Made by a program: the position numbers and the translations under genes. The notes below the pieces were generated by a model. That model saw only the letters and a program-made list of their open reading frames with translations, was not told the DNA's origin and ran no database searches. From the IMG/VR virus record IMGVR_UViG_3300045988_075599, positions 6,354 through 70,353 of that record: a stretch of DNA of 64,000 nt. One strand, given 5' to 3'. This DNA comes from a virus. How positions within the stretch are numbered: position 1 is the first letter of the stretch; every line of letters begins with the position of its first letter. This document shows positions 5,670-30,402 of the stretch, piece after piece.

Positions 5670-5678
5670 AATTCCTCC

Positions 5679-9188: not shown

Positions 9189-9303
9189 AAGTCCTCCTTT
9201 TGCACTCCGTAAAGGTTGGTGCAATAAAATATATATACGTCAATAGCCATGCAAAATTTGTTCGTTAAATAACGAGGTTTTGCACGGTTTTGACGAAAAC
9301 TAA

Positions 9304-12424: not shown

Positions 12425-13876
12425 TTACAAACCACCTGCAAGCTCGATGTCGTCATCTGCTACATTCTCCCAAGCAGAGAGTGGAGCTGTTGCAATCTGG
12501 TCTACATATGCCAAGGCATCTGGGATATCATCGTGTAACCCTTTCGGGAATGTCAGAAGTTCTTCCTGCAACTTAGTAACCCAGTCCATACCAACAGGGA
12601 ACCAGATAGAACCCTGTGAGAATCTTGGCTGTAGTGCAGACTGGATACGAAGTTCCTTCTTTTCTTTCGCGGCAAGGTTCTCGATATAGAACCAGATATT
12701 ACGTCTAGGCATTTCCTTCTCTACGAAGTGCTTCATCGCCGCCTGAAATGCAACTTGTTCGATACCCACCGATACAGGGTGATACTTGGATACGTAATCA
12801 AACAGAACATTGATAGACTCAGAAGGATCCATGCGTTCAGCAGTACAATCAATAAGGAACCACTGATTAGCAGAATTGACAGCAGTAACCAGTACAACAG
12901 TATCATCGGCAGTCTCCTTTTTACTAACAGCTAAGTCCATCGTGATGTAGATATTACAGTTATGCCAGTCAAACTTAGACAGGTCGAAGTAACGGAAGTA
13001 TTTCTTTTTGAAGATAGCCATCTCTGGAGACAATGCAATACACATCTTCTCTCGTTCCCAGATGTCCAGCTTACCAAGTTTAGTAAAGTTATCACGCTCA
13101 TTGGCGATATCGTTTACTGGAAACATCTCTGGCCAGTTACTTTCTCCTGCTTCATTAAGAATAGGCACACGCATAAACGTAAAGTTCAGTTCATCAGGCT
13201 GTAATGCTACACGTTCGATGATACATTTAGCACCAAGGTTATTGCCAATCATAAAGATACGGCAATCTTTACCAAGGGAGAAGATATCAGACAGAAACCA
13301 ATCCCAGTCTTTATCCTGTACGGTATCAGACATAGAGTCTTCCAAGTCCTGTGGGTCGTCGATAACTACAATAGAAGGTCGAAGGTCATGCCAGTTAAGA
13401 CCACGGACAGAAGAACCTTTACCATATGCTTCCATATGGATAGTCATTGTCTGTTTTACCCCGTCAATCTCTTCACCAGTGTAGACTTCTACTTCAAATA
13501 CATCCTGACTTTGCTGATTAACCTTACGAAGGTTCAGATTCAGTAGGGAATTGTGCAGATATTCGTCTGCGATTTCTTTTAGTCGTGCGTTAGCACCCCT
13601 CTGTGTACTTTTAATAAGAACTACATACTGTCTTTTCTTGTTTGGGAATACAAGACAGTAGAGTGGGAACGCTCTGAGTACGATAGAAGACTTTGCTGAC
13701 TGTCGAAATCCTTCTACAGCGTAGTTGGAATCACCATCTAGCAGGATTTCACTCCATTTATAGTGATACCAAGGGGATTTTACGTCATCATCCAGCGGTA
13801 GGAACAGTCTTCTGAAGGCAACTAGGTTATTTTTCGCTGCTTCGTACGCTTTTTGCAGCTCTTCTAGCTGGCTCAT
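12425..13876 (-). CDS. terL: terminase large subunit
   Basis: ATPase motifs (EGFRQSAKSS Walker A-like, IVVIDDPQD Walker B) and a C-terminal nuclease-like region (TMDLAVS...DDIPDAL). Confidence 0.85.
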   Translation of the reverse strand: MSQLEELQKAYEAAKNNLVAFRRLFLPLDDDVKSPWYHYKWSEILLDGDSNYAVEGFRQSAKSSIVLRAFPLYCLVFPNKKRQYVVLIKSTQRGANARLKEIADEYLHNSLLNLNLRKVNQQSQDVFEVEVYTGEEIDGVKQTMTIHMEAYGKGSSVRGLNWHDLRPSIVVIDDPQDLEDSMSDTVQDKDWDWFLSDIFSLGKDCRIFMIGNNLGAKCIIERVALQPDELNFTFMRVPILNEAGESNWPEMFPVNDIANERDNFTKLGKLDIWEREKMCIALSPEMAIFKKKYFRYFDLSKFDWHNCNIYITMDLAVSKKETADDTVVLVTAVNSANQWFLIDCTAERMDPSESINVLFDYVSKYHPVSVGIEQVAFQAAMKHFVEKEMPRRNIWFYIENLAAKEKKELRIQSALQPRFSQGSIWFPVGMDWVTKLQEELLTFPKGLHDDIPDALAYVDQIATAPLSAWENVADDDIELAGGL

Positions 13877-13883: not shown

Positions 13884-14135
13884 TTACACCCCTTTCTTTA
13901 AGGTTTCTAGGATAAAACGGGCGAATTGATCCATGCAACTTGTGTTTCTTGTCCCACATTTGTGCCCCAGAAACATAATTGCGGTAGTTTTGGCGTCTTT
14001 GCCGTCTAAAAGTTTAGCGATGGCAGACAAATTTCCCTGACAACCGCCGACAAAAGAGATATTTTTGAGTTTACCGCCCTCGATATCAAAGGAAATTTCT
14101 TTGCTACACACACTATTAGGTTTATAAGTATACAT
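13884..14135 (-). CDS. stand-alone TSCPD-domain protein (TIGR03905-like)
   Basis: MYTYKPNSVCSKEISFDIEGGKLKNISFVGGCQGN...CGTRNTSCMDQ matches the conserved layout of the small TSCPD family. SD AGGAGGT upstream. Confidence 0.65.
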   Translation of the reverse strand: MYTYKPNSVCSKEISFDIEGGKLKNISFVGGCQGNLSAIAKLLDGKDAKTTAIMFLGHKCGTRNTSCMDQFARFILETLKKGV

Positions 14136-14443: not shown

Positions 14444-14878
14444 ATGGAAAAATCAACAGGATTCATGGGGAACATTGAGAGAGTCATCTCTCTCTCAAAA
14501 TGGGCTGAAATCGCCCACCTTACGGCGGAAAAGCCGCACAAGGTAGCGGAACACGACGGCGCAACCTTGTTTACCGCTAAAGTAGGGATTTTTGTTGATA
14601 CAAAATTTCCCACTAAGGCGGGGAATGTAACTACAACCGCCGTACTTGTTCCCCTTGACGGTGGCAAGGCGTTTGAGTGTGACGGTATCACACTCAAGTT
14701 TGACGGTATCCCGCCATTTATCTATGGCGGGCGCGGTGCAAGTCAGGTATTTACCGTTACGGATAGTAACGGCGATACCGTCAAAAGGACGGGCGGGCGT
14801 AAGTCCGCACAAGCGGAAATAGACGCCATGCGCAAACAACTTGACGCCATTATGGCGTTGTTGGCACAGAAACAGTAA
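14444..14878 (+). CDS. hypothetical 144-aa protein in a GC-rich cassette
   Basis: ORF track. Bracketed by conserved element A and a terminator. No motif recognised. Confidence 0.55.
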   Translation: MEKSTGFMGNIERVISLSKWAEIAHLTAEKPHKVAEHDGATLFTAKVGIFVDTKFPTKAGNVTTTAVLVPLDGGKAFECDGITLKFDGIPPFIYGGRGASQVFTVTDSNGDTVKRTGGRKSAQAEIDAMRKQLDAIMALLAQKQ

Positions 14879-14887
14879 AGCTAGCAA

Positions 14888-14917
14888 GAGAGAGGGGCGT
14901 AAGCCCCTTTTCTCTTT
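14888..14917 (+). terminator. rho-independent terminator of cassette A
   Basis: AGAGAGGGGC-gtaa-GCCCCTTTTCTCT. Confidence 0.7.
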
Positions 14918-14919
14918 AT

Positions 14920-14958
14920 CTATTCCCTTTTGTACACTTGAGTATATAAAATAATACA
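14920..14958 (+). promoter_or_regulatory. conserved 39-nt element, copy B
   Basis: TTGTACACTTGAGTATATAAAATAATACAGAAGGAAGGA. It starts 3 nt after terminator A. Confidence 0.5.
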
Positions 14959-15018
14959 GAAGGAAGGATGAAATACCTTCCAATGTGTTAGCCCGCAAGG
15001 GCGGAAAGGTAGGCTACT

Positions 15019-15150
15019 ATGAAGGTTATGGTAGAAGTGTACGAGCAGGTACATGGGCAAATCAACGTTGCCCGTACGCCAATGGAAATGCTGTTCATGG
15101 ACGTTTCCATCGCCGTCAAGGCGTTCGATAGGGTATTCCCTACGGAATGA
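15019..15150 (+). CDS. hypothetical 43-aa protein (cassette B)
   Basis: My translation gives MKVMVEVYEQVHGQINVARTPMEMLFMDVSIAVKAFDRVFPTE. GAAAGGTAGG upstream and a terminator 3 nt downstream. Too short for the ORF track. Confidence 0.35.
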   Translation: MKVMVEVYEQVHGQINVARTPMEMLFMDVSIAVKAFDRVFPTE

Positions 15151-15152
15151 CG

Positions 15153-15175
15153 GCAAGCAAGAGGGGGCGGAAACG
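15153..15175 (+). terminator. rho-independent terminator of cassette B
   Basis: GGGGGCG-gaaa-CGCCCC followed by TTTTTT. Confidence 0.75.
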
Positions 15176-15344
15176 CCCCTTTTTTCATGTCTATAAAAAA
15201 TAAAATTTTTCTTCTGTGCTCAGCCATTCTTCTACCAATTTTTCCCGCTGACTATAACGCGCGACGCGCCTCGTGCGTAGGGCAAGCTCTTAGGCTAGGG
15301 ATAGACATGAGGCAACCTACACCTGCCACGCAGGGTGAGGAAGG

Positions 15345-15556
15345 TATATAGGAGAAGAAGGGATAGGAATAGGATTTTCATAGGATTTTAGGGTATTTTA
15401 TAGGTTTTTTGGATTCAGAATCGGCAATCACATAATCGTAGAGGAAAACCACAACATAATCATAATATAATAAATAATTGAATATGGCTAACTAATTACA
15501 ATCACAACTTCCTACTCCTATACCGCTATACTACTATATACTACTACTCCCTATAT
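15345..15556. repeat. origin-like element: ATAGG iterons, an AT-rich spacer, then inverted CCTAT iterons
   Basis: ATAGG occurs at 15348, 15363, 15369, 15380 and 15400, with TAGGG at 15389, roughly helically phased. The AT-rich 15420-15510 contains ATAATCATAATATAATAAATAATTGAATATGG. CCTAC/CCTAT/GCTAT occur at 15511, 15517, 15525 and 15550. Confidence 0.4.
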
Positions 15557-15559
15557 ACT

Positions 15560-16170
15560 AATACTTAAAAGGTGGGCTAATAAATAATCTTTCGCCGTTT
15601 TACATTAGGATTTCTGCCAGCTTTCACTCACGAATTAAATTCGATTTCCCACGAAGAAACATGGACTTTTTGCCCTTATATCTAGCTTTCTATTCGAGCG
15701 GTTTATCCTCACTAGTGCATTAGTGCAGGTACGTGGAATGATAGGGAAAACTGGGAGGTTGACAATCCACCGATGGGGGCTTTTGTGCACTTAACCTGAC
15801 ATGATGATTTGCCAAGGTTGAAAGGCAGTCAACCAACGGCAGACAACTGAATATCCCGAACTGTATAAGCCTTGAGAGCTGATATTATGTTCGGGTAAGA
15901 ATTTGAGGTAGACCAGCACTTGGTGCATAAAAGCCTGGTAAACGCCAACAGAATCAATTAGCAGTGCCCAAAAGGTAGAAGTGAAGCGTACTCTTCAAAT
16001 CTACTTACGGATAAGCTGCTAATAATCCCTGGTTGCTCTGGGTGAGTGAGCAACAGTGAGTGTACACCTAAACCAATACTTGGTAGTGTATTCAGTTTTT
16101 CTAGTGGGTGTTTTCCTAATAAAAGCCCACTTCCATTTGTTTAATTTCAGTTGTTTTATTAAAGGGGGTC
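15560..16170 (+). ncRNA. ORF-free, hairpin-rich region: candidate large structured RNA or long leader (strand assumed)
   Basis: No ORF of 60 aa or more. Nested helices include CCCGAAC(15855)/GTTCGGG(15889), ATTAGCAG(15957)/CTGCTAAT(16016) enclosing GTAGA/TCTAC, GTTGCTC(16032)/GAGCAAC(16048) and AGTGGG/CCCACT. Confidence 0.3.
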
Positions 16171-16175
16171 ATCGT

Positions 16176-16370
16176 ATGACACTTAGAGAAATCGCAAGGG
16201 TATCTTGCACAAACCTGAAAGTTTATGTGGGGCACACATGTGTTTATTCCCCATTCAAAGGTGAACTGAAACCTTTCATGGATAGAAAGGTAACTTGGCT
16301 CGATTCAGAGGACGACGTTCTCGCAGTAGGGGTTAGCGAAAAAGAAGGTGAACGCAATGAAGAAGAATAA
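16176..16370 (+). CDS. small hypothetical protein (MxLxE-leader family)
   Basis: ORF trimmed to the ATG at 16176 after AAAGGGGGTCATCGT. Confidence 0.5.
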   Translation: MTLREIARVSCTNLKVYVGHTCVYSPFKGELKPFMDRKVTWLDSEDDVLAVGVSEKEGERNEEE

Positions 16371-16479
16371 AATCAGTCTCGAAGAGCATAACGATAATTT
16401 TATGCTCATGTTCGCTGGTATGCTTATGGGCGCGAGCATTTGTGCTATTGCCCATCTGTTTGTTAGCCTGATTAAATAA
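16357..16479 (+). CDS. hypothetical 40-aa single-pass membrane peptide
   Basis: My translation gives MKKNKISLEEHNDNFMLMFAGMLMGASICAIAHLFVSLIK. It overlaps the previous stop. Confidence 0.35.
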   Translation: MKKNKISLEEHNDNFMLMFAGMLMGASICAIAHLFVSLIK

Positions 16480-16499
16480 GGCTGTGAAAGGAGAAAATC

Positions 16500-16982
16500 A
16501 TGCAAATCAAAAAGGCAAATTACAGTATCAACGGTTATCCAAATAGCCACTTTTTTATTAGCGAAACTGGTCTCACTACGACCACTCTTACTCAGATGAG
16601 TAAATTCACACAGGGCGAAGTAATCGAAATCAATGCCCCTGTATGGCAGCTTTGCGATTCTCGTCATGAGAACCCCATTGCTAATATGGGGGGCATTTTC
16701 CCTAAATGCCTTGCTAATCCACTGGATATGCGAGGTATGAAATCGGACATTCTCGATAAAATCAGAGGGAAATATGGATTCGGTGACACGCTCTTTTGTG
16801 TAGTCACTGGTATGTCCTCAGCGTTGATTTCGTTAGTCAATGCTTGTTCAGCATTAGATGTAAGGCTGCGTCTATTGCACTATGATGTTGTCCATGATTG
16901 TTATAAGATGCAGCTCGTGGATAACTATTACCTCGAGGAGAAGATAACGCTCATTAAAAAAGTAATGAGCCGAAAGGTATAG
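16500..16982 (+). CDS. hypothetical protein
   Basis: ORF track. SD GAAAGGAGAAAATC. Confidence 0.55.
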   Translation: MQIKKANYSINGYPNSHFFISETGLTTTTLTQMSKFTQGEVIEINAPVWQLCDSRHENPIANMGGIFPKCLANPLDMRGMKSDILDKIRGKYGFGDTLFCVVTGMSSALISLVNACSALDVRLRLLHYDVVHDCYKMQLVDNYYLEEKITLIKKVMSRKV

Positions 16983-17086
16983 CAAAAAGGCTTCTAAAGG
17001 GTTGTGCCATAAACAGCCCTATTCCATGGGGAGCTTCCCCCAAAAAAAATATGTTTTGCCCATTGGGGCAGAAAGGAGCCATTATC

Positions 17087-17440
17087 ATGGCAAATGCAAA
17101 GATTGAAAAACGTGATGGAAAGTTGTTCCTCGTCGCAGAATTGACGAAAGAGACCAGACAGTACGCAAGAGACGGCAGAGGACACTCTGCTGGCGATACG
17201 TATGAAGCGTTCATCGCTCATACCAGCGGTCTTGAATATGAGGGAAAGGTCTACAGATTCGACCTCTCTATGCCGATGAAGGCATGGAAGTCCGCTGATG
17301 ATGCAGCTAAGAAAAAGCTCCTCGCTACGCTGAAAAAGCTCAGCGCAGATAAAGCGGCTGAAATGAAAGACGCTTCCGTTGAGGAAATCACAGAAGCCAT
17401 TAAAGAGCATGTGGTAAGCATGCTCGCTGGTATCCAGTAA
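17087..17440 (+). CDS. hypothetical Lys/Ala-rich protein
   Basis: ORF trimmed to the ATG after GAAAGGAGCC. Confidence 0.5.
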   Translation: MANAKIEKRDGKLFLVAELTKETRQYARDGRGHSAGDTYEAFIAHTSGLEYEGKVYRFDLSMPMKAWKSADDAAKKKLLATLKKLSADKAAEMKDASVEEITEAIKEHVVSMLAGIQ

Positions 17441-17456
17441 TAGAGGGGGTATTTCT

Positions 17457-17723
17457 ATGAAATACTCCAAAATGGCTTTCGTTAAGGCTATTCTGCACGG
17501 TTGTGCAGATAGCTACTTCATTGATAGCAAAGGTAAGGTTCGCACCAGAACCGCGACCGTTGCATACAACAGAGTAATTGTACGAGATGGCTTGTCTCGT
17601 ACAAAATACTCTATTCCTGGCTTCATGTACATGTTAGCTAGGACTATGGGCGTACCGCCCACTTATGATAGCGTAGTTCGTGGTCTTGGCACTTACGCTA
17701 ATGTTTTGGCAGAAGGGAGATAA
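17457..17723 (+). CDS. hypothetical protein
   Basis: ORF track. SD AGAGGGGG. Confidence 0.5.
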   Translation: MKYSKMAFVKAILHGCADSYFIDSKGKVRTRTATVAYNRVIVRDGLSRTKYSIPGFMYMLARTMGVPPTYDSVVRGLGTYANVLAEGR

Positions 17724-17727
17724 AACC

Positions 17728-18657
17728 ATGCCAGCAACAACTGACCTTTTATTCGCTAATTTCTCCAATAAACTTGGGAGAATTATTACAGGGAGAAACT
17801 GCTCCCTTTTGGATGATGGTCGTCAGAGACGCCATTTCGGTGTCGAAATTGAGGCGTGCGATTACGCCCGTGACTCCTACGTGGATGACGAGACTGCGAG
17901 CGATGCTACCTATGAGCTTTTCTCGCCATTTCCTGGTTGCGAAGAGTTGTCTGAAATCAAAGACGATTGTTCTTTGGTTGGAAATCATTTCGAGATGGTA
18001 ACATCTCCAATGACAATTACCCTGCTTAGAAGCCTTAATTGGGAAGACTTTTTCAGGGTACTTCGGAATGCCGATTATAAGCAGACTGACTTCAATGAGT
18101 ACGATAAGGCTGGCATTCACGTACATGTGAATCGCAGGTCACTTCATCATCCATTTGAGGCGGCTGTAAACGCACTGGCGTTTATCACAGAGAACGATGA
18201 CACTATTCGTCGATTTGCACGTCGTTCTCAGAGCCAGTGGAATGATTGGTGTGGAACTCCATATCGGTTGTACAATGACATCGACGAATACCTTGACGAG
18301 ATTAAAAACGGCGACTATGACGCCTTTGGATGGGAATATACATCCAATATTCGGGTTGATGATACTAGATACCAGGCTGTCAATTTCTGCTCTTCAAGAA
18401 CATGGGAATTGAGAATTTTCAATTCTACGCTGGAAGCTGAGGATATGCGTAATATTCTGGATTTTGCCGACGCCTTATGGACATTGGCTGATACAGACCA
18501 TTACGATATGAGCCTCGAGTCTATGCATAATAAGCTGCTGGAGCTTGGTAATCCAATCGCAGCCAACCAGATGTATGAGCCGCCGAAAGATACTCATGCA
18601 TCCGATAACTACGATTATCGCGATGACGATGAATATGATGAAGATGGCGATTGGTAA
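17728..18657 (+). CDS. amidoligase (carboxylate-amine ligase, GS/GCS2-like, Amidoligase_2-type)
   Basis: HFGVEIEACD, DDCSLVGNHFEMVTSP, AGIHVHVN and WELRIFNST occur in the order typical of the family. ATG after AGAAGGGAGATAAAACC. Confidence 0.65.
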   Translation: MPATTDLLFANFSNKLGRIITGRNCSLLDDGRQRRHFGVEIEACDYARDSYVDDETASDATYELFSPFPGCEELSEIKDDCSLVGNHFEMVTSPMTITLLRSLNWEDFFRVLRNADYKQTDFNEYDKAGIHVHVNRRSLHHPFEAAVNALAFITENDDTIRRFARRSQSQWNDWCGTPYRLYNDIDEYLDEIKNGDYDAFGWEYTSNIRVDDTRYQAVNFCSSRTWELRIFNSTLEAEDMRNILDFADALWTLADTDHYDMSLESMHNKLLELGNPIAANQMYEPPKDTHASDNYDYRDDDEYDEDGDW

Positions 18658-18775
18658 ATGATATACGCTAGGGATTTCCCTAGCAATCGAAACAAGGGGG
18701 TTATCCCCTTGTCTAGTGGAACCAGCCCACCACTACTGATGAGATAGGCTGTTGTTATGAAAGTAGGTGATTGGC

Positions 18776-19363
18776 ATGGAACAAATTAATAACCTCAGCG
18801 TAGGTGATTTGGTATACGTTCCAGAATATGGTATGGGTATTGTATGGCGACATCATGACCATTTGGAAGACATTTTCGACGTAGCCTTTAGTGGCGAATC
18901 AATCATGTACACCAAAACAGGCGACGAAGCAACATTCGACAAGGTGTCGCAAACATATACCTCAACATATGACGAGGAGTTATCTGTTAAGCGATTTGCT
19001 CCGATTGTAGGACGCAGATTGACTAAAGGGATGCAAGTTTATAATGTGGTCTATGGTATTGGTATTGTGATTATTGCGTCTCCCCCAGATGACGAACGGC
19101 TATACGGTAGAGCGGTCTCGTATTTCGCCAGCGGTGACATAAACAAAGAAACATGCTATAATGGGCAATTTTTGCATGATTACGGTGTCAATTTGTCTAA
19201 TGACGTATTTCCTATGTATAACTTTAGACCGTTTGCTCACTCTAAGCAAGATATAGAACGAGCTGTATGTGAAGCGTCATTAAAAGATTTGTCAGAACGA
19301 TATGTTGAACTCCTTGAACGCTATAAAAAACTTGGTGGAGACGATAGTGATTATAGGATATAG
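18776..19363 (+). CDS. hypothetical protein with two SH3/Tudor-like GDxV...GxGxV repeats
   Basis: VGDLVYVPEYGMGIVW and KGMQVYNVVYGIGIVI. The same repeat type occurs in 41037..41672. Confidence 0.4.
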   Translation: MEQINNLSVGDLVYVPEYGMGIVWRHHDHLEDIFDVAFSGESIMYTKTGDEATFDKVSQTYTSTYDEELSVKRFAPIVGRRLTKGMQVYNVVYGIGIVIIASPPDDERLYGRAVSYFASGDINKETCYNGQFLHDYGVNLSNDVFPMYNFRPFAHSKQDIERAVCEASLKDLSERYVELLERYKKLGGDDSDYRI

Positions 19364-19471
19364 TTAATGAGCCTATTGAGTGTGGATAAAGCAATTTATC
19401 CATACTAATAGCCCCATTAACTTAGTAGGGGTAGTATTTAGTGGCTACAGAAGTAGCAGAAAGAGGTGCTT

Positions 19472-20548
19472 ATGTGCGTTATCGCTTTTTATCCGAAGGG
19501 CTTGCCGTTTAACAATGGCGAATTGAAAAACTGCTTCAAGAATAATCCCGATGGAGCAGGTGTAATGTGGCAGGATGGTGGTAAAGTCCATATCAAGAAG
19601 GGTTTCATGAAGCAGAAAGCCTTTTTTAAGTTCCTGAAAACTCTTCCTACAGACGTTGATAGAGTGCTTCATTTCAGAATCGCTACGTCTGGCAAGGTAA
19701 GCGGTGCATGCTGCCATCCATTCCCAGTCGCAAACGATTTCAAGACAATGATGCAGACTGAGATTGAAGTTCCAGTCGCTTACGCCCATAACGGTGTGCT
19801 GACTGATTACACACCTAAAGAAGGGATGAAATCTCCGTTCTCTGATACGATGGTCTTTGGTAAAGAAGTTCTCGACCATTTGGTTCGGAAACATGTTGAC
19901 CTTTTCGACCCAGTTATCGACGTGATGATTGAATCGACTATTGATGGCGACAGAATGGCTATCATGAATGGCCATGAGGTCGTTACAATGGGGAAATTCA
20001 TCACGAGTACAGTCAGTGGCGCTCAGTATTCTAACGGCTCTTACTCTTACGATAGAAGTCTGTGGAAATCGTATACCTACGGTGGTGGGTATTACGATAC
20101 TTGCGGATACTATCACGTCTGCTCTAACGCGAATACAACCGCACCCAAGAGAGAATCGAGAAGGAAAGACACAAAAGATTCCAAAAGCACCACTATTGTG
20201 AAGGAAGCTGACTACGGATTCTCTTGTGTCAGTTTCATGGCAAAGATTACGTTTAATCCATCAGACCATGGACTTGCTGGTTACACCCGTAACGACTATG
20301 AACAGTTTGTTTTGGACAATCTGGAAGCGTATAACGTCTATGGTCTCGACCTCAATATCTCGGCTATAGGAGAACACTCTATGACATTCACAGTCGAATG
20401 TATGATGTATGCAGATGACGCTCTCGCACAGTTCTACAATGTCTACGAAGGGAAAACCTTCAGTGACGTATGGGAAAGCAACGATTCGTTACATAGTGTC
20501 AGTGTAGACATCGCAATATCGGATGTTAATTTTGACACCATTGCGTAA
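19472..20548 (+). CDS. class II (Ntn) glutamine amidotransferase with an unknown ~170-aa C-terminal extension
   Basis: Starts Met-Cys (MCVIAFYPKG), then NPDGAGVMW, HFRIATSG, HPFPV and AHNGVL. SD AAGAGGTG. Confidence 0.7.
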   Translation: MCVIAFYPKGLPFNNGELKNCFKNNPDGAGVMWQDGGKVHIKKGFMKQKAFFKFLKTLPTDVDRVLHFRIATSGKVSGACCHPFPVANDFKTMMQTEIEVPVAYAHNGVLTDYTPKEGMKSPFSDTMVFGKEVLDHLVRKHVDLFDPVIDVMIESTIDGDRMAIMNGHEVVTMGKFITSTVSGAQYSNGSYSYDRSLWKSYTYGGGYYDTCGYYHVCSNANTTAPKRESRRKDTKDSKSTTIVKEADYGFSCVSFMAKITFNPSDHGLAGYTRNDYEQFVLDNLEAYNVYGLDLNISAIGEHSMTFTVECMMYADDALAQFYNVYEGKTFSDVWESNDSLHSVSVDIAISDVNFDTIA

Positions 20549-20567
20549 TTAGAAAGGAGACTAATAC

Positions 20568-23057
20568 ATGCCTAGATATTGTCAATTCACAGAGAATGTC
20601 CGATTCCATCGCTCCTTGGCTAGTATGCCACACGAACATGGGATTGTAGGAGTCGGACTTGTTAGTTCTCGTAGTCGTTCATTGAGCCATAACGTCAGAA
20701 CTGTTTTGCGTGATGTACAGGATTGTGTTGACCAGCACCAGTTCCTGCCAGATAACTTTATTTGGTGTACTCACGAAGAATATGAACATAACTGGCCGTA
20801 TTTGGCGAACGAGTTACTGAGAACACGCCCGACTACGACGGATACTAGCCCGATTGTCCCTGCATTAGATATGCCAAAGTTTTCGATAGGTATTACGAAG
20901 AATTTGGATATTATTACAAGAGACTCGAATGGTCGTTGGATTTATCTTGAGAAAACTGGTAACACTGTTGAGGTAGTTCTCTCTGATGTTGCACCTGATT
21001 GTCTCGTTGTTTATCGCACTGGGAATAGCGATGCATCAAGACACCTCTCGGAGAACAGGTATTGGGTAACTGTTCGTGGCGGTAATTATGTAATCGTAAG
21101 ACCGCCAATTAACTGTCCAAATGATATCCATGTCCCATACGGTTCATTTTTGAACTCGCGATTCGTATTCCATGGTGACAATAGCTACGTCATGGAGTCG
21201 GTGCTTTCAATCCACGTGTTCCTTGTTGGAAACGAAGAAATCACGACGTTTTCGTATCCACGGAGCGGGGTGTACGGACAGCTTGTCCTTCATGAGAATG
21301 GCACCAAAGTATACATGACACTTACGCCAGTTTACCCAGATATTTTCGGTTGCAAACTTACACGTAAGTACAAAGTCCCTATTATGTCTGCCTTTGATGT
21401 GTCACCCTCTGCGCTTTGTGGCAGATTGTCTGATACATACAACATCAATACGGTTGATGATGAGTACGTAGACTGCTTGAACGGTGACACTCTCACGTAT
21501 GGCTCGCACCCTACACTGTGCCACGGAATACCGACAAGAGAGGCAGCATTCAGAAACAATTTTGTGACTGAAGATGGCGTTCATCGTTCTGTGTGGCTTC
21601 GTTCAATGTCTGTTGACGAAGATGGCAATAAGGTGTACAGGAACTTCGATGACGGATTCATGATGAACATGCTGAGAAACGTTCCGTTTAACGCAATACG
21701 AAATTGTCTTATGGAGTACGAAGGGGAAAGCTATCGGTGGGACGGCAGAAACTCCGCGTGGATTCGTGCGGATGATGCCGTATATATTCCACCAAGAGCT
21801 TCACGAAGCGCACTCGATATCTTTACACATAGTCGGTTCGTCCGGTGCGTAGAATGCCCGTTGTGTCATTCAAAGACTATGGTAGGCGGTAGGTATACGT
21901 TCTCCTATTTCATTGATGGGAAGAAGTATTCTAAACCGATGTGCGACCGCTGCGTTTCTATCCTTTTCGATGGTAATCCGCTGGATATTCCGATTGAAGA
22001 TGGCAGTGTATTGCACGTAAATAGCTGTGACGTATGCGGCTACAATGGAGAATATACGTTGTCAAAGTGGTGGGTACGTGTATCTGGTGAAGAAGAAGGT
22101 TTCATCGACGAGTATGCAGTATGGAATCACGATACACAGCAGTGGAAACTGGTAGATGATGAAGATGGTACGCTGTATCTTGCTTTCACATCCAGAGGAT
22201 ATATTCTCACCGAAAGATACTGCACTCACATCAACGGGTATTTCTACAAGCCAGAACCTATATTCTTCAAGGGTAATAACGAGAACACGCACAAGTTCTT
22301 CGGTATTGAACTTGAAGTTATGGATGGCGGTGAAAGTTCTGACAATGCAAAAGAAGTATGCAGTAACCATGAGGAACTGTATGCAAAACATGATGGTTCG
22401 TTGACGAACGGTATGGAATTGGTATCACATCCATGTACTGTTAGTTGGCACTTAACTCACCTGTGGACTGATGTTTTAACAAGGCTCCGCACGTTGCGTT
22501 ATCATGCTCGTAACGGCAGTGGTATTCATGTACATGTATCGAGAAAGTATTGGGAAAACAATGGTGGAGCTTGTCACATTGCAAACTTGATTACGTTTTG
22601 CGATACGAACAGGGAAGCACTGAGGCTTTATGCGAATAGAGAGAAAGAAACGTTCGACCACTGGACACATAGCTACATGTCTCCATCTGCTACAAAGAAA
22701 ACCGTCTCTACAACGTTAGGAACGTTAGGTGATACCGAAGAAGCAATGCAGGATATGTACGAAAGATACAGTGGAACTACAGACCATTATTCTGTAGTCA
22801 ATCTGAGCAATGCTTCAACGGTAGAGATTCGAGCATTTGCAAGTACGCTGAGTATAACTCGTATGCATAGTATCATCCAGTTCGTTGACGTATTGACGGA
22901 GCTGTCTACCGAAGCAACGTTAGGCAATCCGATTACGTTCGGACTTATCCAGACAAGAGCACAGGATAAAGGATATACCGCCCTGTTACAAGACCCGAAG
23001 TTCGCCGAAGCTATCGAGGAAACTAACCGTCATGTAGATACTCGTATTTGCTCCTAG
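20568..23057 (+). CDS. 829-aa protein: unknown N-terminal region with Zn-ribbon-like Cys pairs, plus a C-terminal amidoligase domain
   Basis: FFGIELEVMDGG, HDGSLTNGMELVSHP, SGIHVHVS and STVEIRAFAST in the C-terminal ~260 aa. CVECPLC..CDRC..CDVC upstream. Confidence 0.65.
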   Translation: MPRYCQFTENVRFHRSLASMPHEHGIVGVGLVSSRSRSLSHNVRTVLRDVQDCVDQHQFLPDNFIWCTHEEYEHNWPYLANELLRTRPTTTDTSPIVPALDMPKFSIGITKNLDIITRDSNGRWIYLEKTGNTVEVVLSDVAPDCLVVYRTGNSDASRHLSENRYWVTVRGGNYVIVRPPINCPNDIHVPYGSFLNSRFVFHGDNSYVMESVLSIHVFLVGNEEITTFSYPRSGVYGQLVLHENGTKVYMTLTPVYPDIFGCKLTRKYKVPIMSAFDVSPSALCGRLSDTYNINTVDDEYVDCLNGDTLTYGSHPTLCHGIPTREAAFRNNFVTEDGVHRSVWLRSMSVDEDGNKVYRNFDDGFMMNMLRNVPFNAIRNCLMEYEGESYRWDGRNSAWIRADDAVYIPPRASRSALDIFTHSRFVRCVECPLCHSKTMVGGRYTFSYFIDGKKYSKPMCDRCVSILFDGNPLDIPIEDGSVLHVNSCDVCGYNGEYTLSKWWVRVSGEEEGFIDEYAVWNHDTQQWKLVDDEDGTLYLAFTSRGYILTERYCTHINGYFYKPEPIFFKGNNENTHKFFGIELEVMDGGESSDNAKEVCSNHEELYAKHDGSLTNGMELVSHPCTVSWHLTHLWTDVLTRLRTLRYHARNGSGIHVHVSRKYWENNGGACHIANLITFCDTNREALRLYANREKETFDHWTHSYMSPSATKKTVSTTLGTLGDTEEAMQDMYERYSGTTDHYSVVNLSNASTVEIRAFASTLSITRMHSIIQFVDVLTELSTEATLGNPITFGLIQTRAQDKGYTALLQDPKFAEAIEETNRHVDTRICS

Positions 23058-24658
23058 AGAAATACCAATTAGATGGCGTTAGTCTTATGAAAAGAAAGGA
23101 CACATTCATACAAGCTGACAGTATGGGTATGGGAAAGACTGCACAAGCAATCGAGTACATGAAACAAACTACCGACTGTCACTTTATTGTAGTGTGTCCT
23201 TCTTCTCTTAAATCTAACTGGTGTCGCGAACTCAATGACTGGTTAGGCATAACAGTTAAACCCGACATCTACACGGGGGATATTATTGTGACTAACTACG
23301 AGAAAGTAGGACGCATGATAGATATGATTGGTGATTATGTGTATAATTTTAAGGGGGTAATATTTGACGAAGCACACATGATTAAAAATGTATACGCTGG
23401 TAGAACGTATGAAGCCAAACGCCTTGTCGATAAGGTTGGTAATCCAATGATGTTGACAGGCACACCAATACTGAATAGGCCTAACGATTTGTTAGGCCTA
23501 TTGTACGTTGGTGGCAAGCTATCAGAGTTCGGTGGCATTGATGCATACACACGGCGATACATCCCCAATGTAGAAAAAGATAATGCCATTTTCTATTGTA
23601 ACTTTGCACATCTCGATGAGCTACACGAAAAGATAGAACCTTTTGTTTGTCGCCGTCGATGGTGTGATATTCGCCGCCCAACCTTCCCGATTAAGAAAAC
23701 GGAAGTGACGCTAGGTAACTTTGCTAACGCTCCATTGTCATCAGTCAACATCACTAACATACAGAAGGTAGAGACTGAGGTAATGAAACGTAAGCTACCT
23801 CTAGTTGTACGCTGGATTCAAAGGGATTACGATACGCATCATGAGCCGTTGGTTGTGTTTGCTAATCATCGGCAAATGATAGACGTATTAAGTGCGGTGT
23901 TTCCTAATAGCACTGTAGTGTATGGTGGTATGACGTACAAAGAAAAGGAACAGAATGTACAGAAGTTCCTGAATGGTGACGCCGATATTATTCTATGCTC
24001 GTTAGCTTGTGCTGCTTGCGGACTTAATTTAGTTCGCTCTCATAGAGTTGTGTTCGCAGAGTTCCCTTGGACTAAAGGGATATACGAACAGGCTATTGCT
24101 AGGTGTGCAAGACGAGGGCAAACTAAGACTACAGAAGTGTTCGCATTGATTATGGAGAACAGTTACGATAGGTATCGACTAGAACAAATGAGATGGAAGT
24201 CTGCAATAGCCGATGATATTATTGACGGAAAGGATAAGAAAGATGGAAGATATTATCTTGGTAATTTACCTCATAGTGTCCTTGCTTGTCTTGAAGATGG
24301 TAGTATAGATACATCACCATACTTCGGCATGGATATTTACTCCGATGAATTTACCATAGCTATCGGAGAGATGTCACGCGATTGGTTGCTTGCCAATACG
24401 CAAGTGAAAGGTGATGAGGATATATACTGGGAGTGTGTGTTCTGCTGTTTCACGCAATATGTATTCGGCATGGCTATTAGTATGTTGTCGCAAGGTTTGT
24501 CATATGATACGTCTAACCTAAGCAACATGAATTTACTAGCGGACATGTCTGGCTATGGTTTGAAAACATTGCAAGCTAGATACACATGGTTCCTTAATCG
24601 GTGTAAGCAGTTAGGATTTGACCAGTCGTGGATATTCCTAGTTCGATTCAATTCGTAA
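23048..24658 (+). CDS. SNF2-family helicase/ATPase
   Basis: YQLDGV...ADSMGMGKT (motif I), FDEAHMIKN (motif II), LTGTP, and a helicase-C region (GGMTYKEKEQNVQKF...GLNL...QAIARCARRGQ). The TTG start overlaps the upstream stop. Confidence 0.8.
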   Translation: MLLEKYQLDGVSLMKRKDTFIQADSMGMGKTAQAIEYMKQTTDCHFIVVCPSSLKSNWCRELNDWLGITVKPDIYTGDIIVTNYEKVGRMIDMIGDYVYNFKGVIFDEAHMIKNVYAGRTYEAKRLVDKVGNPMMLTGTPILNRPNDLLGLLYVGGKLSEFGGIDAYTRRYIPNVEKDNAIFYCNFAHLDELHEKIEPFVCRRRWCDIRRPTFPIKKTEVTLGNFANAPLSSVNITNIQKVETEVMKRKLPLVVRWIQRDYDTHHEPLVVFANHRQMIDVLSAVFPNSTVVYGGMTYKEKEQNVQKFLNGDADIILCSLACAACGLNLVRSHRVVFAEFPWTKGIYEQAIARCARRGQTKTTEVFALIMENSYDRYRLEQMRWKSAIADDIIDGKDKKDGRYYLGNLPHSVLACLEDGSIDTSPYFGMDIYSDEFTIAIGEMSRDWLLANTQVKGDEDIYWECVFCCFTQYVFGMAISMLSQGLSYDTSNLSNMNLLADMSGYGLKTLQARYTWFLNRCKQLGFDQSWIFLVRFNS

Positions 24659-24674
24659 ACACGACATACTAAAA

Positions 24675-24707
24675 GGGCGTAACTCGTATGGGTTACGCCC
24701 TTTTTTT
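24675..24707. terminator. bidirectional terminator between convergent blocks
   Basis: AAAA-GGGCGTAAC-loop-GTTACGCCC-TTTTTTT. Confidence 0.8.
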
Positions 24708-26441: not shown

Positions 26442-29400
26442 TTACACCGCGCACCCCGACGCACCACAGGAATCACACTGCCAGCAATGACCCGATAACT
26501 TTACGTTCTTGCTATGACATTCTGGGCATTCCATTTCTCTTGGTCTATCCTCGACTTCTACTTCCTGAATAATTGGCTCATGCGAATCAAGAGTATACGC
26601 ATCGTTCAATGTCATACCTACTGCAAACCCTACGCTATCTGCGTTCAGCTTGAATAACTGTTTAATGATAGCATCAATGCTTACACCACACCGCATCGAG
26701 AGTGAGATAAGTCTAGTGATACCATCGACTTCATCCTTGTGGCGTTCACTGTTTACGAAAATCTCAAACAGTTTATCGTCCTTCCAGTTGACTGTGATAT
26801 ACAATTTAGTACCGTCGCCCATCACCTGTGTATAGGTTTTACCAACGAGTGTACCAATATCACCACGGCGTTCTGGTTTAAGACTGTCATGAAGGATGGT
26901 AGGTTTCTCTTCCTTCTTACTCAGCCCAAGGATATTACCTCTCGCGCAGTTGTCTCTGAATACAGTGATACCTTTACACCCTACCTGCCATGCCGCATCA
27001 TAGATAGCGAAGATGTCATCAGGTGTAGCAGACTCTGGCAGATTAACCGTAGAACTGATGGAGTTATCTACGTACTTCTGCATAGTTGCCTGTGTCAGTA
27101 TACGTCGAATCGGTTCAACATCATGAGACTCGATAACGTATGGGAACATCTTCTTAATATCTTCTGCACTCGTATCCATTGGCAGCTCGTTTCGTGCAAG
27201 CAAGTCCTCGATAGAATGTGAGAATACTCTGAACGTCTTACCCTGTTCTTCAAGTTTGTGCGTAGTTCTTTCGTAGTACAGTTTATAGATTGGTTCACAA
27301 CCACCAGTATATCTACCAGCCAGCAAACTAATACTACCAGTTGGAGCAATGCTAATAAGCTGTCCGTTAAGCAAGCCGTGTTCCTTCACACATTTCTTCG
27401 TGTCATCATCAAGGGACTGGAAGAATTTAGAATCAGCCGTCTTGTCGTAGTCATATTCGCCGAACGTATTGAAATAATCCTGACACAGTAAAGCCGACGC
27501 CTTCACTGCTTCATTCGTAAGACAGTGAAACAACTTACGAGTAAACTCCAATGCCTTATCGCTCCCGTATTCCAGTCCAAGTTCCACAAGCATGTCAGCA
27601 TAACCGAACACGCCTAACCCAATCGGTCTCCAGTCGCGGATATACTTACGGTTCTCTTCATATGGCTGCTTATCATACGAGTAATCAAGTGCATCGTTAA
27701 GTGCTCGAACTGCAACATGTACTGTATCAATGAACGAATCCCAGCAGAACTTACCAGTGCGCATGTGTACGAACTTAGCTAAGTTGATACTACCTAAGTT
27801 GCATGAACCCCACGCACCCAGCGGAAGTTCGGCGCAGTTGCCAGTCAGCATACCATTAGCAATGAACGTATGGTTCTTAGGTTCATTCATGCAATATACT
27901 TTATCAGCCATCGGAGCTTCCGAGATAGACACTACGGTAATAAACCTAGATGCATCTCTGTTCGGGTAACATTCGGTGTCAACCCTATGAGTATGAAGTC
28001 CGAGTTTATTCAGCTTGTTCATATACCATGATGCGATGGTCAGTCGGTAACAGTCCTGGCAATGATACTTCTTGTACCCGCCTTTACCATCTGGCATAAG
28101 TCTATCTGCCGCCGCCCTTACACGAGATACTGTCGAATGAATACCAAGCGTAGTGAGCATGAGTCTCAGTCTATCCATAAACGGCTTATTGATGGACGTA
28201 ATACTTACGCTACCATCCTCGGAGTTACGGCTCCCGTCAGTGTCAATCAGTCCAGCTAAGAAATTCAGTCTATCGCTAATGCTAGTATCAGACATTGGGA
28301 TATAAAACTTTTCTTTCAGTACACCCTTCGGCACAAGTACCACATCTCTTCTGTCTTCGTGCTTCACATCTTCACTATCGATATAGTTAATCAGATGTTT
28401 CTTGCCATCATACAATGCGATGCTACGTCTGCCAGTAGTACCATCACCAGCATACACACCCTGTGTATACATCTGGCTACCAGTGCTATCGATACTTGCG
28501 TTATCCTTACCTACTACAGGGAGATGGCACTTAGCTAACTTTGTACCAACCGTCAAGTCTTCTGCTTTAATACGTTCACCATTAGCCAGTACCCATTTGT
28601 GATAATAGGTACAGTCAACAGATGAACCATCTGAAAATTTAACAGTAAGCATAGGCATGTCAGTGCCAGTCAGCTTAGGTGTAGTCAAACTCCACTCCTC
28701 ACCATTCCATACTTCTACTTCTTTATCCGCTAATGTTTCAATAGGCATGTAGCCATACTTGGTAAGGATTAAAGTGTCACCTCTTACACATGGGTTTGTC
28801 GTAAGGATATGGAAGTTATCATATCCAGACAACAGGTTGTAGTCATTGAACTCGTCAATGAATAATGCACCTGGGTCTCCCCAATTCCACTGACATTCGC
28901 AGAACTTCTTAAAGAACTCACGAGCCTTAATTGTTTTCTCGATATGTTCGCCTGTAGACTCCACATCAAACTTCAGTGTGTATGGTTTGTCACAATCTAC
29001 CGCAGTCATAAACTCATCGGTGAATTTAATAGACACGTTCATAGACTGGAGCCTGTCACCTTTCATCTTGGTATCAAGCAACTCTTCGATATCAGGATGA
29101 GAACAATCAATAGATACCATGGTTGCTCCGCGTCTACCATGCTGACTGATAACGTTACCAGTCTCGTTGAACAAATCAAGGAACGATACAGCACCAGTAG
29201 AACTCTTAGCTGCGTTGTTTACTTTAGCATTACGTGGACGGAGAATGGAAATGTCAGTGCCAACTCCACCACCCTTACTAAAGATACGAGCCATGTGTTT
29301 GTTCGCTTCGTAGATTGCTTCGATAGTATCATCTTCGATAGGAACTACATAGCAGTTACTACCTGCCGCATTGATTTCATTCTTGCGTCCTGCAAGGTAC

Positions 29401-29597
29401 ATTGTTCTTCCGCCGAAGAAGAAAGTACCACTAGCTAACAGGCACTCAACCTTATCCCTAATGCTTTCGTCACAGATACTAGCTACCCTCTGACAAAATA
29501 CAGCAGGGGATTCCATGTCATCCTTCGCATACTTAGCACGGAATACGTTGTATGCTACTTCATCTTTTGCCCAAAGCACTTCTTCATTGCACATCAT
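26442..29597 (-). CDS. nrdJ: ribonucleotide reductase, class II (NrdJ-like), interrupted by an intein
   Basis: NCYVVPIEDD, GGGVGTDISILRP, SSTGAVSF, the active-site NPC/AE split by the insert, and a C-terminal Cys-rich tail CPECHSKN..CWQCDSCGASGC. No NrdB-like or glycyl-radical motif in the window. Confidence 0.8.
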   Translation of the reverse strand: MMCNEEVLWAKDEVAYNVFRAKYAKDDMESPAVFCQRVASICDESIRDKVECLLASGTFFFGGRTMYLAGRKNEINAAGSNCYVVPIEDDTIEAIYEANKHMARIFSKGGGVGTDISILRPRNAKVNNAAKSSTGAVSFLDLFNETGNVISQHGRRGATMVSIDCSHPDIEELLDTKMKGDRLQSMNVSIKFTDEFMTAVDCDKPYTLKFDVESTGEHIEKTIKAREFFKKFCECQWNWGDPGALFIDEFNDYNLLSGYDNFHILTTNPCVRGDTLILTKYGYMPIETLADKEVEVWNGEEWSLTTPKLTGTDMPMLTVKFSDGSSVDCTYYHKWVLANGERIKAEDLTVGTKLAKCHLPVVGKDNASIDSTGSQMYTQGVYAGDGTTGRRSIALYDGKKHLINYIDSEDVKHEDRRDVVLVPKGVLKEKFYIPMSDTSISDRLNFLAGLIDTDGSRNSEDGSVSITSINKPFMDRLRLMLTTLGIHSTVSRVRAAADRLMPDGKGGYKKYHCQDCYRLTIASWYMNKLNKLGLHTHRVDTECYPNRDASRFITVVSISEAPMADKVYCMNEPKNHTFIANGMLTGNCAELPLGAWGSCNLGSINLAKFVHMRTGKFCWDSFIDTVHVAVRALNDALDYSYDKQPYEENRKYIRDWRPIGLGVFGYADMLVELGLEYGSDKALEFTRKLFHCLTNEAVKASALLCQDYFNTFGEYDYDKTADSKFFQSLDDDTKKCVKEHGLLNGQLISIAPTGSISLLAGRYTGGCEPIYKLYYERTTHKLEEQGKTFRVFSHSIEDLLARNELPMDTSAEDIKKMFPYVIESHDVEPIRRILTQATMQKYVDNSISSTVNLPESATPDDIFAIYDAAWQVGCKGITVFRDNCARGNILGLSKKEEKPTILHDSLKPERRGDIGTLVGKTYTQVMGDGTKLYITVNWKDDKLFEIFVNSERHKDEVDGITRLISLSMRCGVSIDAIIKQLFKLNADSVGFAVGMTLNDAYTLDSHEPIIQEVEVEDRPREMECPECHSKNVKLSGHCWQCDSCGASGCAV
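27837..28790 (-). mobile_element. 318-aa intein with a LAGLIDADG endonuclease domain, inserted in the RNR NPCxE active-site motif
   Basis: Extein ..HILTTNP | CVRGDTLIL...(TYYH block B)...YTQGVYAGDGT...FLAGLIDTDGS...NHTFIANGMLTGN | CAELPL. Residues 270-587 of the ORF. Confidence 0.8.
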
Positions 29598-29803
29598 AAT
29601 CTATCGCTAATCCCTTTCTTGTACTTAATTACTTTAATAGAATCGTCTGTCTTTGGCAGCGGGTACACATGTACTCGCAGGTCTTTGTTTGTCACGTTAT
29701 CATCTACCAGTTTTTTTACTTCATCCTGGTCGCCAGCTAATCCCACGCATCTGGGCATGCCTCTGGAATCAAAGACAACAACCGCGTATCCGGTAAGTCG
29801 CAT
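29594..29803 (-). CDS. hypothetical small protein
   Basis: ORF track. It overlaps the 3' end of the ThyX-like gene, so the start is uncertain. Confidence 0.3.
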   Translation of the reverse strand: MRLTGYAVVVFDSRGMPRCVGLAGDQDEVKKLVDDNVTNKDLRVHVYPLPKTDDSIKVIKYKKGISDRL

Positions 29804-30402
29804 CCTCTAGCCTCCACTAATTCCTTAAAATATGGTAATCGTTTATACATCCACGCACAGAAGTATCTCCATTCATCTAACTGATGATTGATTCTCTGCG
29901 TGTACATCGTCATAAGCTGTAAGTAATTCGTTGTTACTCTTGCTTCTTCCAACATACCGACTGGCACAGAATAGATTAACTCTTTCTTAATCTTAGGTGG
30001 CAGTGGTACTCCCTTGTACTTATCAAGCAGGTCTTCCCTGTACTTAATAAAGGCATCAATCACTGGGCTCGTTGTACCAAGTGCGCCAACCTCACTCTGT
30101 GCAAAGTCGTATGGTGTCAAGACAAACTTTGGATTGGCGATGTTGTGCATGATGGACTGGCTCATGACAATCTGGAACCAGTGGTATCTCTGTGCCTGTT
30201 GCCACCACTTGACACTAGCAATAATAGAGAACTGAACATTCACACCCGTAAGCATATTAGCTTCACCGCTATTCAGTGGTTTAGATACAAGGCTCTTCAT
30301 TACTGTCATGCCGCGGTCAGCACTCAGTTGTGAACCATACGACAACCCAATAGCCTTCGCCGATTCTTTCAGTCCTGTTACTTTCTCGTCCAGAATAATC
30401 AT
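29737..30402 (-). CDS. ThyX-like (flavin-dependent thymidylate synthase fold) protein with a degenerate signature motif
   Basis: By-eye alignment to ThyX. FSIIASVKWWQQAQRYHWFQIVMSQS aligns with F..I.....R.Q..RHRxxSxxxxSxRY, and TTNYLQLMTMYTQRINHQLDEWR with vNaRsLmnFlnlRadshAQwEI. Confidence 0.55.
   Translation of the reverse strand: MIILDEKVTGLKESAKAIGLSYGSQLSADRGMTVMKSLVSKPLNSGEANMLTGVNVQFSIIASVKWWQQAQRYHWFQIVMSQSIMHNIANPKFVLTPYDFAQSEVGALGTTSPVIDAFIKYREDLLDKYKGVPLPPKIKKELIYSVPVGMLEEARVTTNYLQLMTMYTQRINHQLDEWRYFCAWMYKRLPYFKELVEARGCDLPDTRLLSLIPEACPDAWD

Follow-up and report, generated by a model that had tools for sequence, protein, structure and literature searches.

A duplicated amidoligase, a class-II glutamine amidotransferase-like protein and an SNF2 ATPase form a candidate covalent-modification cassette in a gut phage

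Genes and domains of the cassette

The DNA analysed here is a 64-kb stretch (hereafter, the window) of IMG/VR record IMGVR_UViG_3300045988_075599, the ~70-kb genome of an uncultured gut phage; ~6 kb of that genome fall outside it, and our statements on absent genes refer to the window. Its plus strand from ~16.0 to 24.7 kb is a single compact gene block between two minus-strand modules, one for packaging and structure (terminase, 12425-13876; SU10-type portal, 10247-12271; SU10-type capsid protein) and one for replication (an intein-containing ribonucleotide reductase (RNR), a ThyX-like gene, a DnaG-DnaB fusion, Rad52 and a DnaE-type Pol III alpha). Within this block, an initial annotation made from the sequence alone had recognised a cassette of four genes, namely an amidoligase (amidoligase-1, 17728..18657), a glutamine amidotransferase (GATase, 19472..20548), a second, much longer ligase (the big ligase, 20568..23057) and an SNF2 ATPase (23048..24658). 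All four open reading frames (ORFs) are present on the plus strand, and a fifth (18767/18776-19363), which the four-gene description had passed over, lies between amidoligase-1 and the GATase. The amidoligases, the GATase and the SNF2 ATPase share one operon, bounded by a strong, bidirectional intrinsic terminator 13 nt past the SNF2 stop (24671-24704; a 15-bp stem, 7 of its pairs being GC, flanked by T tracts on either side). The cassette thus described is a conserved, co-transcribed unit and lies in an early accessory operon next to the replication module.

Both ligases match Pfam Amidoligase_2 (PF12224) above its curated cutoff of 22 bits. Amidoligase-1, a stand-alone carboxylate-amine ligase of 309 aa resembling glutamine synthetase (GS), does so clearly (46.5 bits, E=5.7e-12), and residues 598-774 of the 829-aa big ligase, within a catalytic domain at residues ~555-829 (22230..23057), do so just barely (23.5 bits, E=5.8e-5); among the PHROG amidoligase families, phrog_16683 matches the big ligase at 1e-31. 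Amidoligase-1 aligns with the C-terminal ~275 aa of the big ligase (25% identity, E=4e-15), the motifs ExE, D(G/C)SL, E(L/M)V(S/T)xP, GIHVHV and E(I/L)R being in register, and the acidic, His and Arg catalytic motifs (ExE, DGSL, ELVSxP, GxHVHV, ExR) are invariant in both paralogues throughout the family. As first proposed from these same motifs, the two proteins are paralogues, and both look like catalytically intact, ATP-dependent carboxylate-amine ligases of the GS/GCS2-like kind. An AlphaFold2 (AF2) model of the big ligase has an overall predicted local distance difference test score (pLDDT) of 72.8; its catalytic domain reaches only ~50-70, and at this quality Foldseek matched it in the PDB to YbdK (1.5e-3), glutamine synthetases and Dop/PafA. 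In BFVD the model found dozens of phage 'amidoligase' models (down to 5.7e-11), and the catalytic domain aligned by profile (hhalign) with amidoligases of the wider clade at E=9e-47. Amidoligase-1 ends in a conserved acidic tail (18600-18657, plus strand; ...DDDEYDEDGDW) reminiscent of those of single-strand-binding proteins, whose acidic, aromatic-terminated tails dock onto partner proteins.

Ahead of its catalytic domain, the big ligase carries a beta-rich N-terminal region (residues 1-550; 20568..22217), modelled mostly at pLDDT 75-93. It had been described as unassignable, and structure, Foldseek and profile searches bore this out: there was no fold match in the PDB, BFVD yielded only same-family proteins, and a profile run against 1.84 billion representatives recovered four full-length same-family proteins, two fragments and one repeat artefact. 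The sole match from outside the family, P0154 (5,841 aa), was rejected as piled-up ~0-bit matches to a repeat. Nor is the region homologous to the N-terminal parts of amidoligases from the wider clade: the two could not be aligned (hhalign probability, 0.5%). The paired Cys motifs noted earlier fared unevenly, in that CVECPLCH and CDRC are invariant and together form a Cys4/His zinc ribbon (CxxCH...CxxC; C430, C433, H434, C459 and C462; residues ~425-470, nt ~21840-21980), whereas CDVC is not conserved. The N-terminal region diverges faster than the catalytic domain, retaining 38-39% identity as against 63% in the most distant pair of family members. Zinc ribbons also precede the ligase domain of Marvin gp105 and, four in number, that of an Atopobiaceae locus.

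The 358-aa GATase starts Met-Cys at an ATG (19472) behind an AGAGGTG Shine-Dalgarno (SD) sequence. Of the Pfam families by which the cassette was to be checked, Amidoligase_2, SNF2-rel_dom and Helicase_C were all matched above cutoff, but none of GATase_4/6/7 was (GATase_4, 17.5 bits; gathering cutoff 23), and GATase_4 is matched by 16 of 57 GATase relatives (best E=5.9e-5). Residues and fold nevertheless agree with the class-II, N-terminal nucleophile (Ntn) layout read from the sequence at the outset. The protein has ~1,190 relatives (protein clusters), and a 57-sequence alignment leaves M1, C2, R69, T72, H106-N107-G108 and S124-D125 invariant, which correspond to Cys1, Arg73, Thr76, Asn98-Gly99 and Asp123 of GlmS/PurF, the set comprising nucleophile, oxyanion hole and the residues that bind the alpha-carboxylate and alpha-amino groups of glutamine. 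In a profile alignment, HFRIATSG falls on HTRWATHG of GlmS and AHNGV on VHNGI. The AF2 model (pLDDT 83.7) matches the GlmS glutaminase domain (E=1.8e-5) and PurF (4e-4) in the PDB with probability 1.0. We therefore describe the protein, despite its sub-threshold Pfam score, as having a predicted class-II Ntn fold with a complete glutamine (gamma-glutamyl) pocket. The ~170-aa C-terminal extension reported earlier is real and can be refined: the glutaminase domain (1-195) is followed by a disordered linker (198-239) and a folded, ferredoxin/ACT-like domain of ~110 aa (250-358), which has weak matches only (NikR C-domain, E~0.03) and varies among relatives.

The SNF2 gene and the conservation of the cassette

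The last protein of the operon (536 aa) combines an SNF2 core (residues 1-400) with a family-specific C-terminal extension of ~135 aa that is missing from homologues of 339-397 aa. It scores above threshold on SNF2-rel_dom (77.5 bits, E=1.3e-21) and Helicase_C (51.1 bits, E=1.9e-13), carries a Walker A motif (DSMGMGKT) and a DEAH box (invariant D24, G27, G29-K30-T31 and D107-E108-H110), and resembles Rad54-like proteins and ISWI in the PDB. The core also scores on the profiles of DpdE, DISARM DrmD and ZorD (2.4e-23, 1e-19 and 3.8e-20), but at no more than 100 bits, far under the family cutoffs of 500-1500, and no other Dpd, DISARM or Zorya component was found among the window proteins. It thus looks like a minimal phage SNF2 protein, similar to those annotated 'DNA helicase' in hundreds of phages.

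How this gene begins is a conserved trait. Its TTG start overlaps the stop of the big ligase by 10 nt and has no SD sequence, unlike most genes of the window. Already pointed out in the initial annotation, this arrangement recurs in every family member examined: in 10/10 family loci the start is TTG, lying either inside the terminal Cys codon plus stop of the ligase (ATTTGCTCCTAG) or directly after TAA, and it is kept down to 47% protein identity. Residues 1-13 form a conserved Q-motif, with which the homologues begin as well. The layout is that of classic termination-reinitiation coupling and argues for matched expression of ligase and SNF2 ATPase.

As to the wider distribution, synteny extends over the entire cassette in a family of metagenomic phages of ~65-71 kb, whose big ligases share 47-94% identity. 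From 496 IMG/VR loci found with a GATase profile, 80 (36-95% identity) were scanned with purpose-built hidden Markov models for the three protein families. An amidoligase ORF adjoins the GATase in all loci with enough flanking sequence, so that the co-occurrence expected of a true cassette is kept in related phages, and outside the window's own family it lies directly upstream. An SNF2 ORF follows 0.9-4.3 kb downstream on the same strand wherever more than ~2 kb of downstream flank is available. More than 20 different spacings, with many different insertions between the genes, point to repeated insertion without loss of the triad.

The species-representative genome collection, with 63 amidoligase/GATase loci across many phyla, gave a different picture for the SNF2 gene. 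Here, ~55/63 loci (Firmicutes, Actinobacteria, Bacteroidota, Ignavibacteria, Planctomycetota and others) have the amidoligase immediately upstream of the GATase and in the same orientation, and SNF2 lies within 6 kb in 4/63, two of them operon-like (L095, of the window family, and L096) and two ~5 kb away and possibly unrelated; its presence in few diverse loci implies that it is not needed for the core chemistry. The pair is adjacent also in Marvin (gp105-gp106) and in an environmental podovirus, and prophage-like loci occur in isolate genomes of Collinsella, Adlercreutzia and Veillonella, besides contigs binned to many phyla. The ligase-GATase pair is hence an obligate two-gene unit, and SNF2 a clade-specific addition in a large clade of ~65-70-kb gut phages.

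Two of these loci deserve mention in their own right. L096 belongs to a cultured isolate, Veillonella sp. VA139 (NZ_RQVL01000001.1, a 247-kb contig), and carries the amidoligase-GATase-SNF2 triad in the arrangement of the wider clade. In L108, from an Atopobiaceae metagenome-assembled genome (MAG), an amidoligase with four zinc ribbons and a GATase share one stop-free frame (4513-6759), joined by an Arg/Pro-rich linker that ends ...EPS-MCIIVYK; this single ORF may be a real fusion, needing self-processing to expose Cys1, or else high-GC read-through or a sequencing or assembly artefact.

What the cassette may modify

What, then, could be the substrate? In our judgement there is about an even chance that the cassette represents a lineage-specific elaboration of a pair composed of a (zinc-ribbon) Amidoligase_2 protein followed by a stand-alone class-II GATase, and that it serves the amidation of a macromolecule, for which a DNA-linked target is plausible and modestly favoured. 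A ligase would activate a carboxylate of the substrate as an acyl-phosphate, which nitrogen freed from glutamine by the GATase (or another amine) would attack to yield an amide; the second ligase paralogue might perform a second ligation or amidation step. In the big ligase, the N-terminal region with its zinc ribbon would pick the target, as would the variable C-terminal domain in the GATase, and the SNF2 ATPase, made by termination-reinitiation from the big-ligase message, would probably act in a complex with the ligase. That large, fast-evolving, lineage-specific targeting regions and zinc ribbons contrast with a near-frozen catalytic core argues for a macromolecule rather than a universal metabolite, and translational coupling to SNF2 in the window's clade suggests DNA or a DNA-bound protein as the best guess. 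As an interpretation, the covalent-modification cassette proposed at the outset is reasonable, with the domain assignments and the conserved gene linkage behind it. The tilt toward nucleic acids that came with it has fared less well, since it comes down to the SNF2 linkage (one phage clade; 4/63 diverse loci), with no known hypermodification gene in the window; the RNR and ThyX-like genes then adduced in support are ordinary phage nucleotide-metabolism genes and have no bearing on the cassette.

Several observations weigh against amidation of a DNA-linked macromolecule. The SNF2 ATPase could have nothing to do with the pair and instead assist replication, its gene occupying the last place of an early operon by the replication module, and small SNF2 'DNA helicases' are common in phages without the pair. 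Conversely, most lineages have the pair without SNF2 (L008 and L014, for example), and the SNF2-linked loci all come from one broad phage clade, so that shared descent inflates the co-occurrence. Furthermore, no enzyme recognisable as placing a carboxylate or amine handle on DNA was found in the window, and a conserved pocket would not by itself separate an ammonia donor from a gamma-glutamyl hydrolase.

This last point leads to an alternative that we consider possible, if doubtful, namely that the GATase-like protein is a gamma-glutamyl-amide hydrolase, removing or editing gamma-glutamyl groups installed by the ligases in a reversible tagging cycle. Ergothioneine synthesis, with EgtA/EgtC, and putrescine catabolism, with PuuA/PuuD, employ analogous enzyme pairs. 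The best Pfam match, GATase_4, is a YafJ/EgtC-type family, and the Pfam text for PF12224 reportedly describes the neighbour as a 'glutamine amidotransferase-like thiol peptidase', alternating with Aig2/GGCT; a GGCT gene lies in the same cluster in Xanthomonas phage DES1 and in LUZ24-like phages. A pocket of Cys, Arg, Asn-Gly and Asp would, moreover, bind any gamma-glutamyl amide. On the other hand, all experimentally characterised fold matches are true amidotransferases (GlmS, PurF), and the strict adjacency to the ligase and the possible single-ORF fusion in one MAG fit channelling equally well.

That most lineages have the pair without SNF2 also fits a role in the modification of peptides or cell-wall precursors, wherein gamma-glutamyl-type bonds would be built or amidated, for instance to block superinfection, and SNF2 would be unrelated. 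The portal and capsid of the present phage match Pfam models named for SU10, which, like phiEco32, is a kuravirus. Cell-wall or peptide modification against superinfection is also the usual prediction cited for the pair, including in phiEco32- and LUZ24-like phages (PMC10580990, PMC11945000 and PMC11318856, relaying Iyer et al. 2009). We nevertheless hold this role to be unlikely here. The ATP-grasp, GGCT/AIG2 and COOH-NH2_lig (PF14395) partners that motivated the idea are absent from the operon ORFs scanned (all named plus-strand ORFs from 14444 to 24658, plus 16056-16370), the pair occurs in contigs whose binning, unreliable as it is, assigns them to Patescibacteria, a Thaumarchaeota MAG and hosts, diderm as well as monoderm, whose walls differ greatly, and the SNF2 coupling is conserved and translational.

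Small-molecule metabolism would be the classical setting of GS-like ligases and class-II GATases; the genes sit in the early accessory operon, and the pair has been called auxiliary metabolic genes in papers. In such a role the cassette would amidate or gamma-glutamylate a nucleotide, a cofactor or a polyamine, for instance in answer to a defence that depletes a metabolite, again with SNF2 unrelated. However, zinc-ribbon arrays and large, fast-evolving, family-specific ligase N-termini are unexpected for a universal small substrate, and both the paralogue duplication and the SNF2 coupling would be left without explanation, all of which makes this role quite unlikely in our eyes.

Identical chemistry, that is, gamma-glutamyl phosphate plus glutamine-derived ammonia, underlies tRNA-dependent amidation, and the window encodes a tRNA-Gln(UUG). 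Acting as a GatCAB analogue, the cassette would convert Glu-tRNA(Gln) to Gln-tRNA(Gln) for the phage tRNA-Gln; the SD-using host suggests a Firmicute, and many Firmicutes lack glutaminyl-tRNA synthetase (GlnRS). Yet the pair is reported from LUZ24-like Pseudomonas phages and, per PMC10580990, from phiEco32. The hosts of these phages have GlnRS, and no RNA-binding domain was recognised. We hold this role to be very improbable.

Returning to macromolecule amidation with a DNA-linked target, a more specific version may be envisaged, in which the ligase-GATase-SNF2 triad is a DNA-tracking amidation machine: SNF2, bound via the N-terminus of the big ligase, would move on replicated phage DNA or host nucleoprotein, while the ligases and the glutaminase install or convert amide adducts. 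We regard this as a long shot. If true, it would constitute a hitherto unknown post-replicative route of DNA hypermodification, or a new host-takeover modification of DNA-bound proteins. More generally, a target on DNA or on a DNA-bound host protein would define a new class of phage covalent modification. The pair, with ~1,190 protein clusters and 496 IMG/VR loci, ranks with the more widespread of those phage enzyme systems to which experiments have yet to assign a function. Its obligate pairing, fast-evolving targeting regions and SNF2 link restrict the field of hypotheses to targets that are macromolecular and possibly associated with DNA. Cultivable entry points are the element of Veillonella sp. 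VA139 (L096), kuraviruses, LUZ24-like phages and Marvin.

Neighbouring genes and known systems

Two small ORFs accompany the cassette genes. The first, of 88 aa (17457..17723, plus strand), ends 4 nt before amidoligase-1; it is conserved in family loci (66-88% identity in L002-L004; C-terminus ...ANVLAE(GR), ending exactly at Glu in L004), and its membership in the cassette is uncertain. It has no Pfam or PHROG match and no homologue in distant amidoligase-GATase loci, and the idea of a conserved Pup/LysW-like carrier or substrate was dropped for want of support, the ORF being confined to the close family. The second, of ~195 aa, occupies the interval between amidoligase-1 and the GATase (18776..19363, plus strand, or from GTG 18767), with the ATG at 18776 (AGGTGA upstream) preferred from sequence context. 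It is present in relatives L002 and L003, is dispensable given its absence in L004, and has no Pfam, PHROG or PADLOC match.

Upstream of the operon, ~1.6 kb (~14900-16500) are devoid of convincing ORFs, with a terminator-like hairpin (14886-14916) at the boundary. A comparable gap without genes, 1.0-1.3 kb long, occurs in relatives. Searches of the stretch gave neither an Rfam family nor notable repeats, and it may be a regulatory or origin region. Strong SD sequences before most genes of the window indicate an SD-using bacterium as the host, and the nearest contig in the genome collection, a whole phage-sized contig of ~70 kb, comes from the bin of a Lachnospiraceae MAG, weak evidence as to the host. 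A nucleotide search with the cassette against 50,697 phage records gave no match, so the phage has no sequenced close relative there. Membership in Ca. Heliusvirales, with which one GATase match is annotated, was rejected because these are temperate siphoviruses with other marker genes, whereas here the portal and capsid are SU10-type and the polymerase is a DnaE.

Among the minus-strand genes, a 359-aa radical SAM/SPASM protein resembling peptide maturases (1263-2342) stands among the tail genes, beside a tail-spike-like ORF with a Peptidase_G2 match. Its matches to rSAM_Cxxx_rpt (E=6.6e-59) and to the PapB ranthipeptide maturase (4.5e-47) are both under the cutoffs; its role could be the cross-linking of a protein of the virion or the maturation of a peptide encoded by the phage. 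A single ORF of 4,017 aa (42938-54991), with a strong SD sequence and no Pfam match, lies immediately downstream of an SLT transglycosylase gene (55009-56484) and may encode a very large virion protein that is injected, possibly in the manner of the N4 virion RNA polymerase. The 'ThyX-like' protein (29737-30402) matches Pfam Thy1 weakly (25.4 bits) and PHROG 6721, of unknown function, at 9e-32; with no PDB sequence match and no canonical RHRxxS ThyX motif seen, it may not be a thymidylate synthase. The RNR large subunit (26442-29597) contains a LAGLIDADG intein, and its homologue in L003 is intein-free (733 aa). A separate 83-aa TSCPD-domain protein (13884-14135) is encoded next to the terminase. 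Finally, ORF 8108-9310 as listed overlaps at its 5' end with the tRNA-Gln(UUG) gene (9305-9380), and its true start is therefore probably further downstream.

How does the cassette relate to what has been described before? In Lee et al. 2021, amidoligase and amidotransferase genes of unknown role occur within thymidine-hypermodification clusters. Of the genes that mark such clusters (Lee et al. 2018/2021), a scan of ~45 window ORFs with Pfam, PHROGs or NCBIfam found no 5-hydroxymethyluracil (5-HMU) DNA kinase, aGPT-pyrophosphorylase, dUMP hydroxymethylase or TET/JBP. For 7-deazaguanine modification, the window gave no match to DpdA/TGT, QueC/D/E or Gat-QueC, its sole radical-SAM protein being of the SPASM peptide-maturase type and not QueE. 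PADLOC returned no match for the ligases, the GATase or the ~195-aa ORF, and a generic SNF2 only.

With respect to enzymology, the proposed logic of a glutaminase feeding ammonia to an ATP-dependent carboxylate activator is like that of MurT-GatD, asparagine synthetase B, GlmS and PurF. Asparagine synthetase B, GlmS and PurF are class-II amidotransferases, whose Ntn fold and pocket residues the GATase matches; GatD is a class-I GATase, and the present ligases have a GS/GCS2-like fold rather than that of a Mur ligase or a PP-loop enzyme. MurT/GatD, which amidates iso-Glu of peptidoglycan, is described in PMC3267633. EgtA-EgtC and PuuA-PuuD join a GS-like ligase to a Cys-nucleophile gamma-glutamyl amidohydrolase, and Dop/PafA pupylation employs two paralogous GS-like enzymes in one system, as is the case here; both likenesses are at the level of fold. 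Nothing resembling a Pup tag was identified; the 88-aa ORF ahead of amidoligase-1 is family-restricted.

The closest counterparts are the pairs of other phages. According to secondary citations, the pair was noted by comparative genomics in Iyer et al. 2009; it is a routine annotation in LUZ24-like phages, Marvin and OM43 phages and, per PMC10580990, in phiEco32. In the searchable literature we found no experimentally assigned function for it, in agreement with the statement in the initial annotation that Iyer, Aravind and co-workers had recorded the pair around 2009 and that no substrate was established, and no paper linking it to SNF2. Of the extended system described in 2009 (LUZ24-like; UFV-P2 and DES1 compared), the adjacency of Amidoligase_2 and class-II GATase is found here and the ATP-grasp, GGCT and COOH-NH2_lig partners are not. 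The pairs of LUZ24-like/tf/UFV-P2 phages, phiEco32, Marvin (gp105-gp106) and OM43 phages belong to the same two families in the same order, ligase then GATase (Met-Cys), and likewise have a zinc ribbon before the ligase domain; homology is seen directly with Marvin (gp105 vs. the big ligase, E=4e-23; gp106 vs. the GATase, E=2e-13). Set against these pairs, the cassette here has a duplicated ligase, a family-restricted N-terminus of 550 aa, a GATase whose C-terminal domain is folded, and a translationally coupled SNF2. The enzyme pair itself is thus already known; what appears to be new is a duplicated, enlarged ligase translationally coupled to an SNF2 ATPase.

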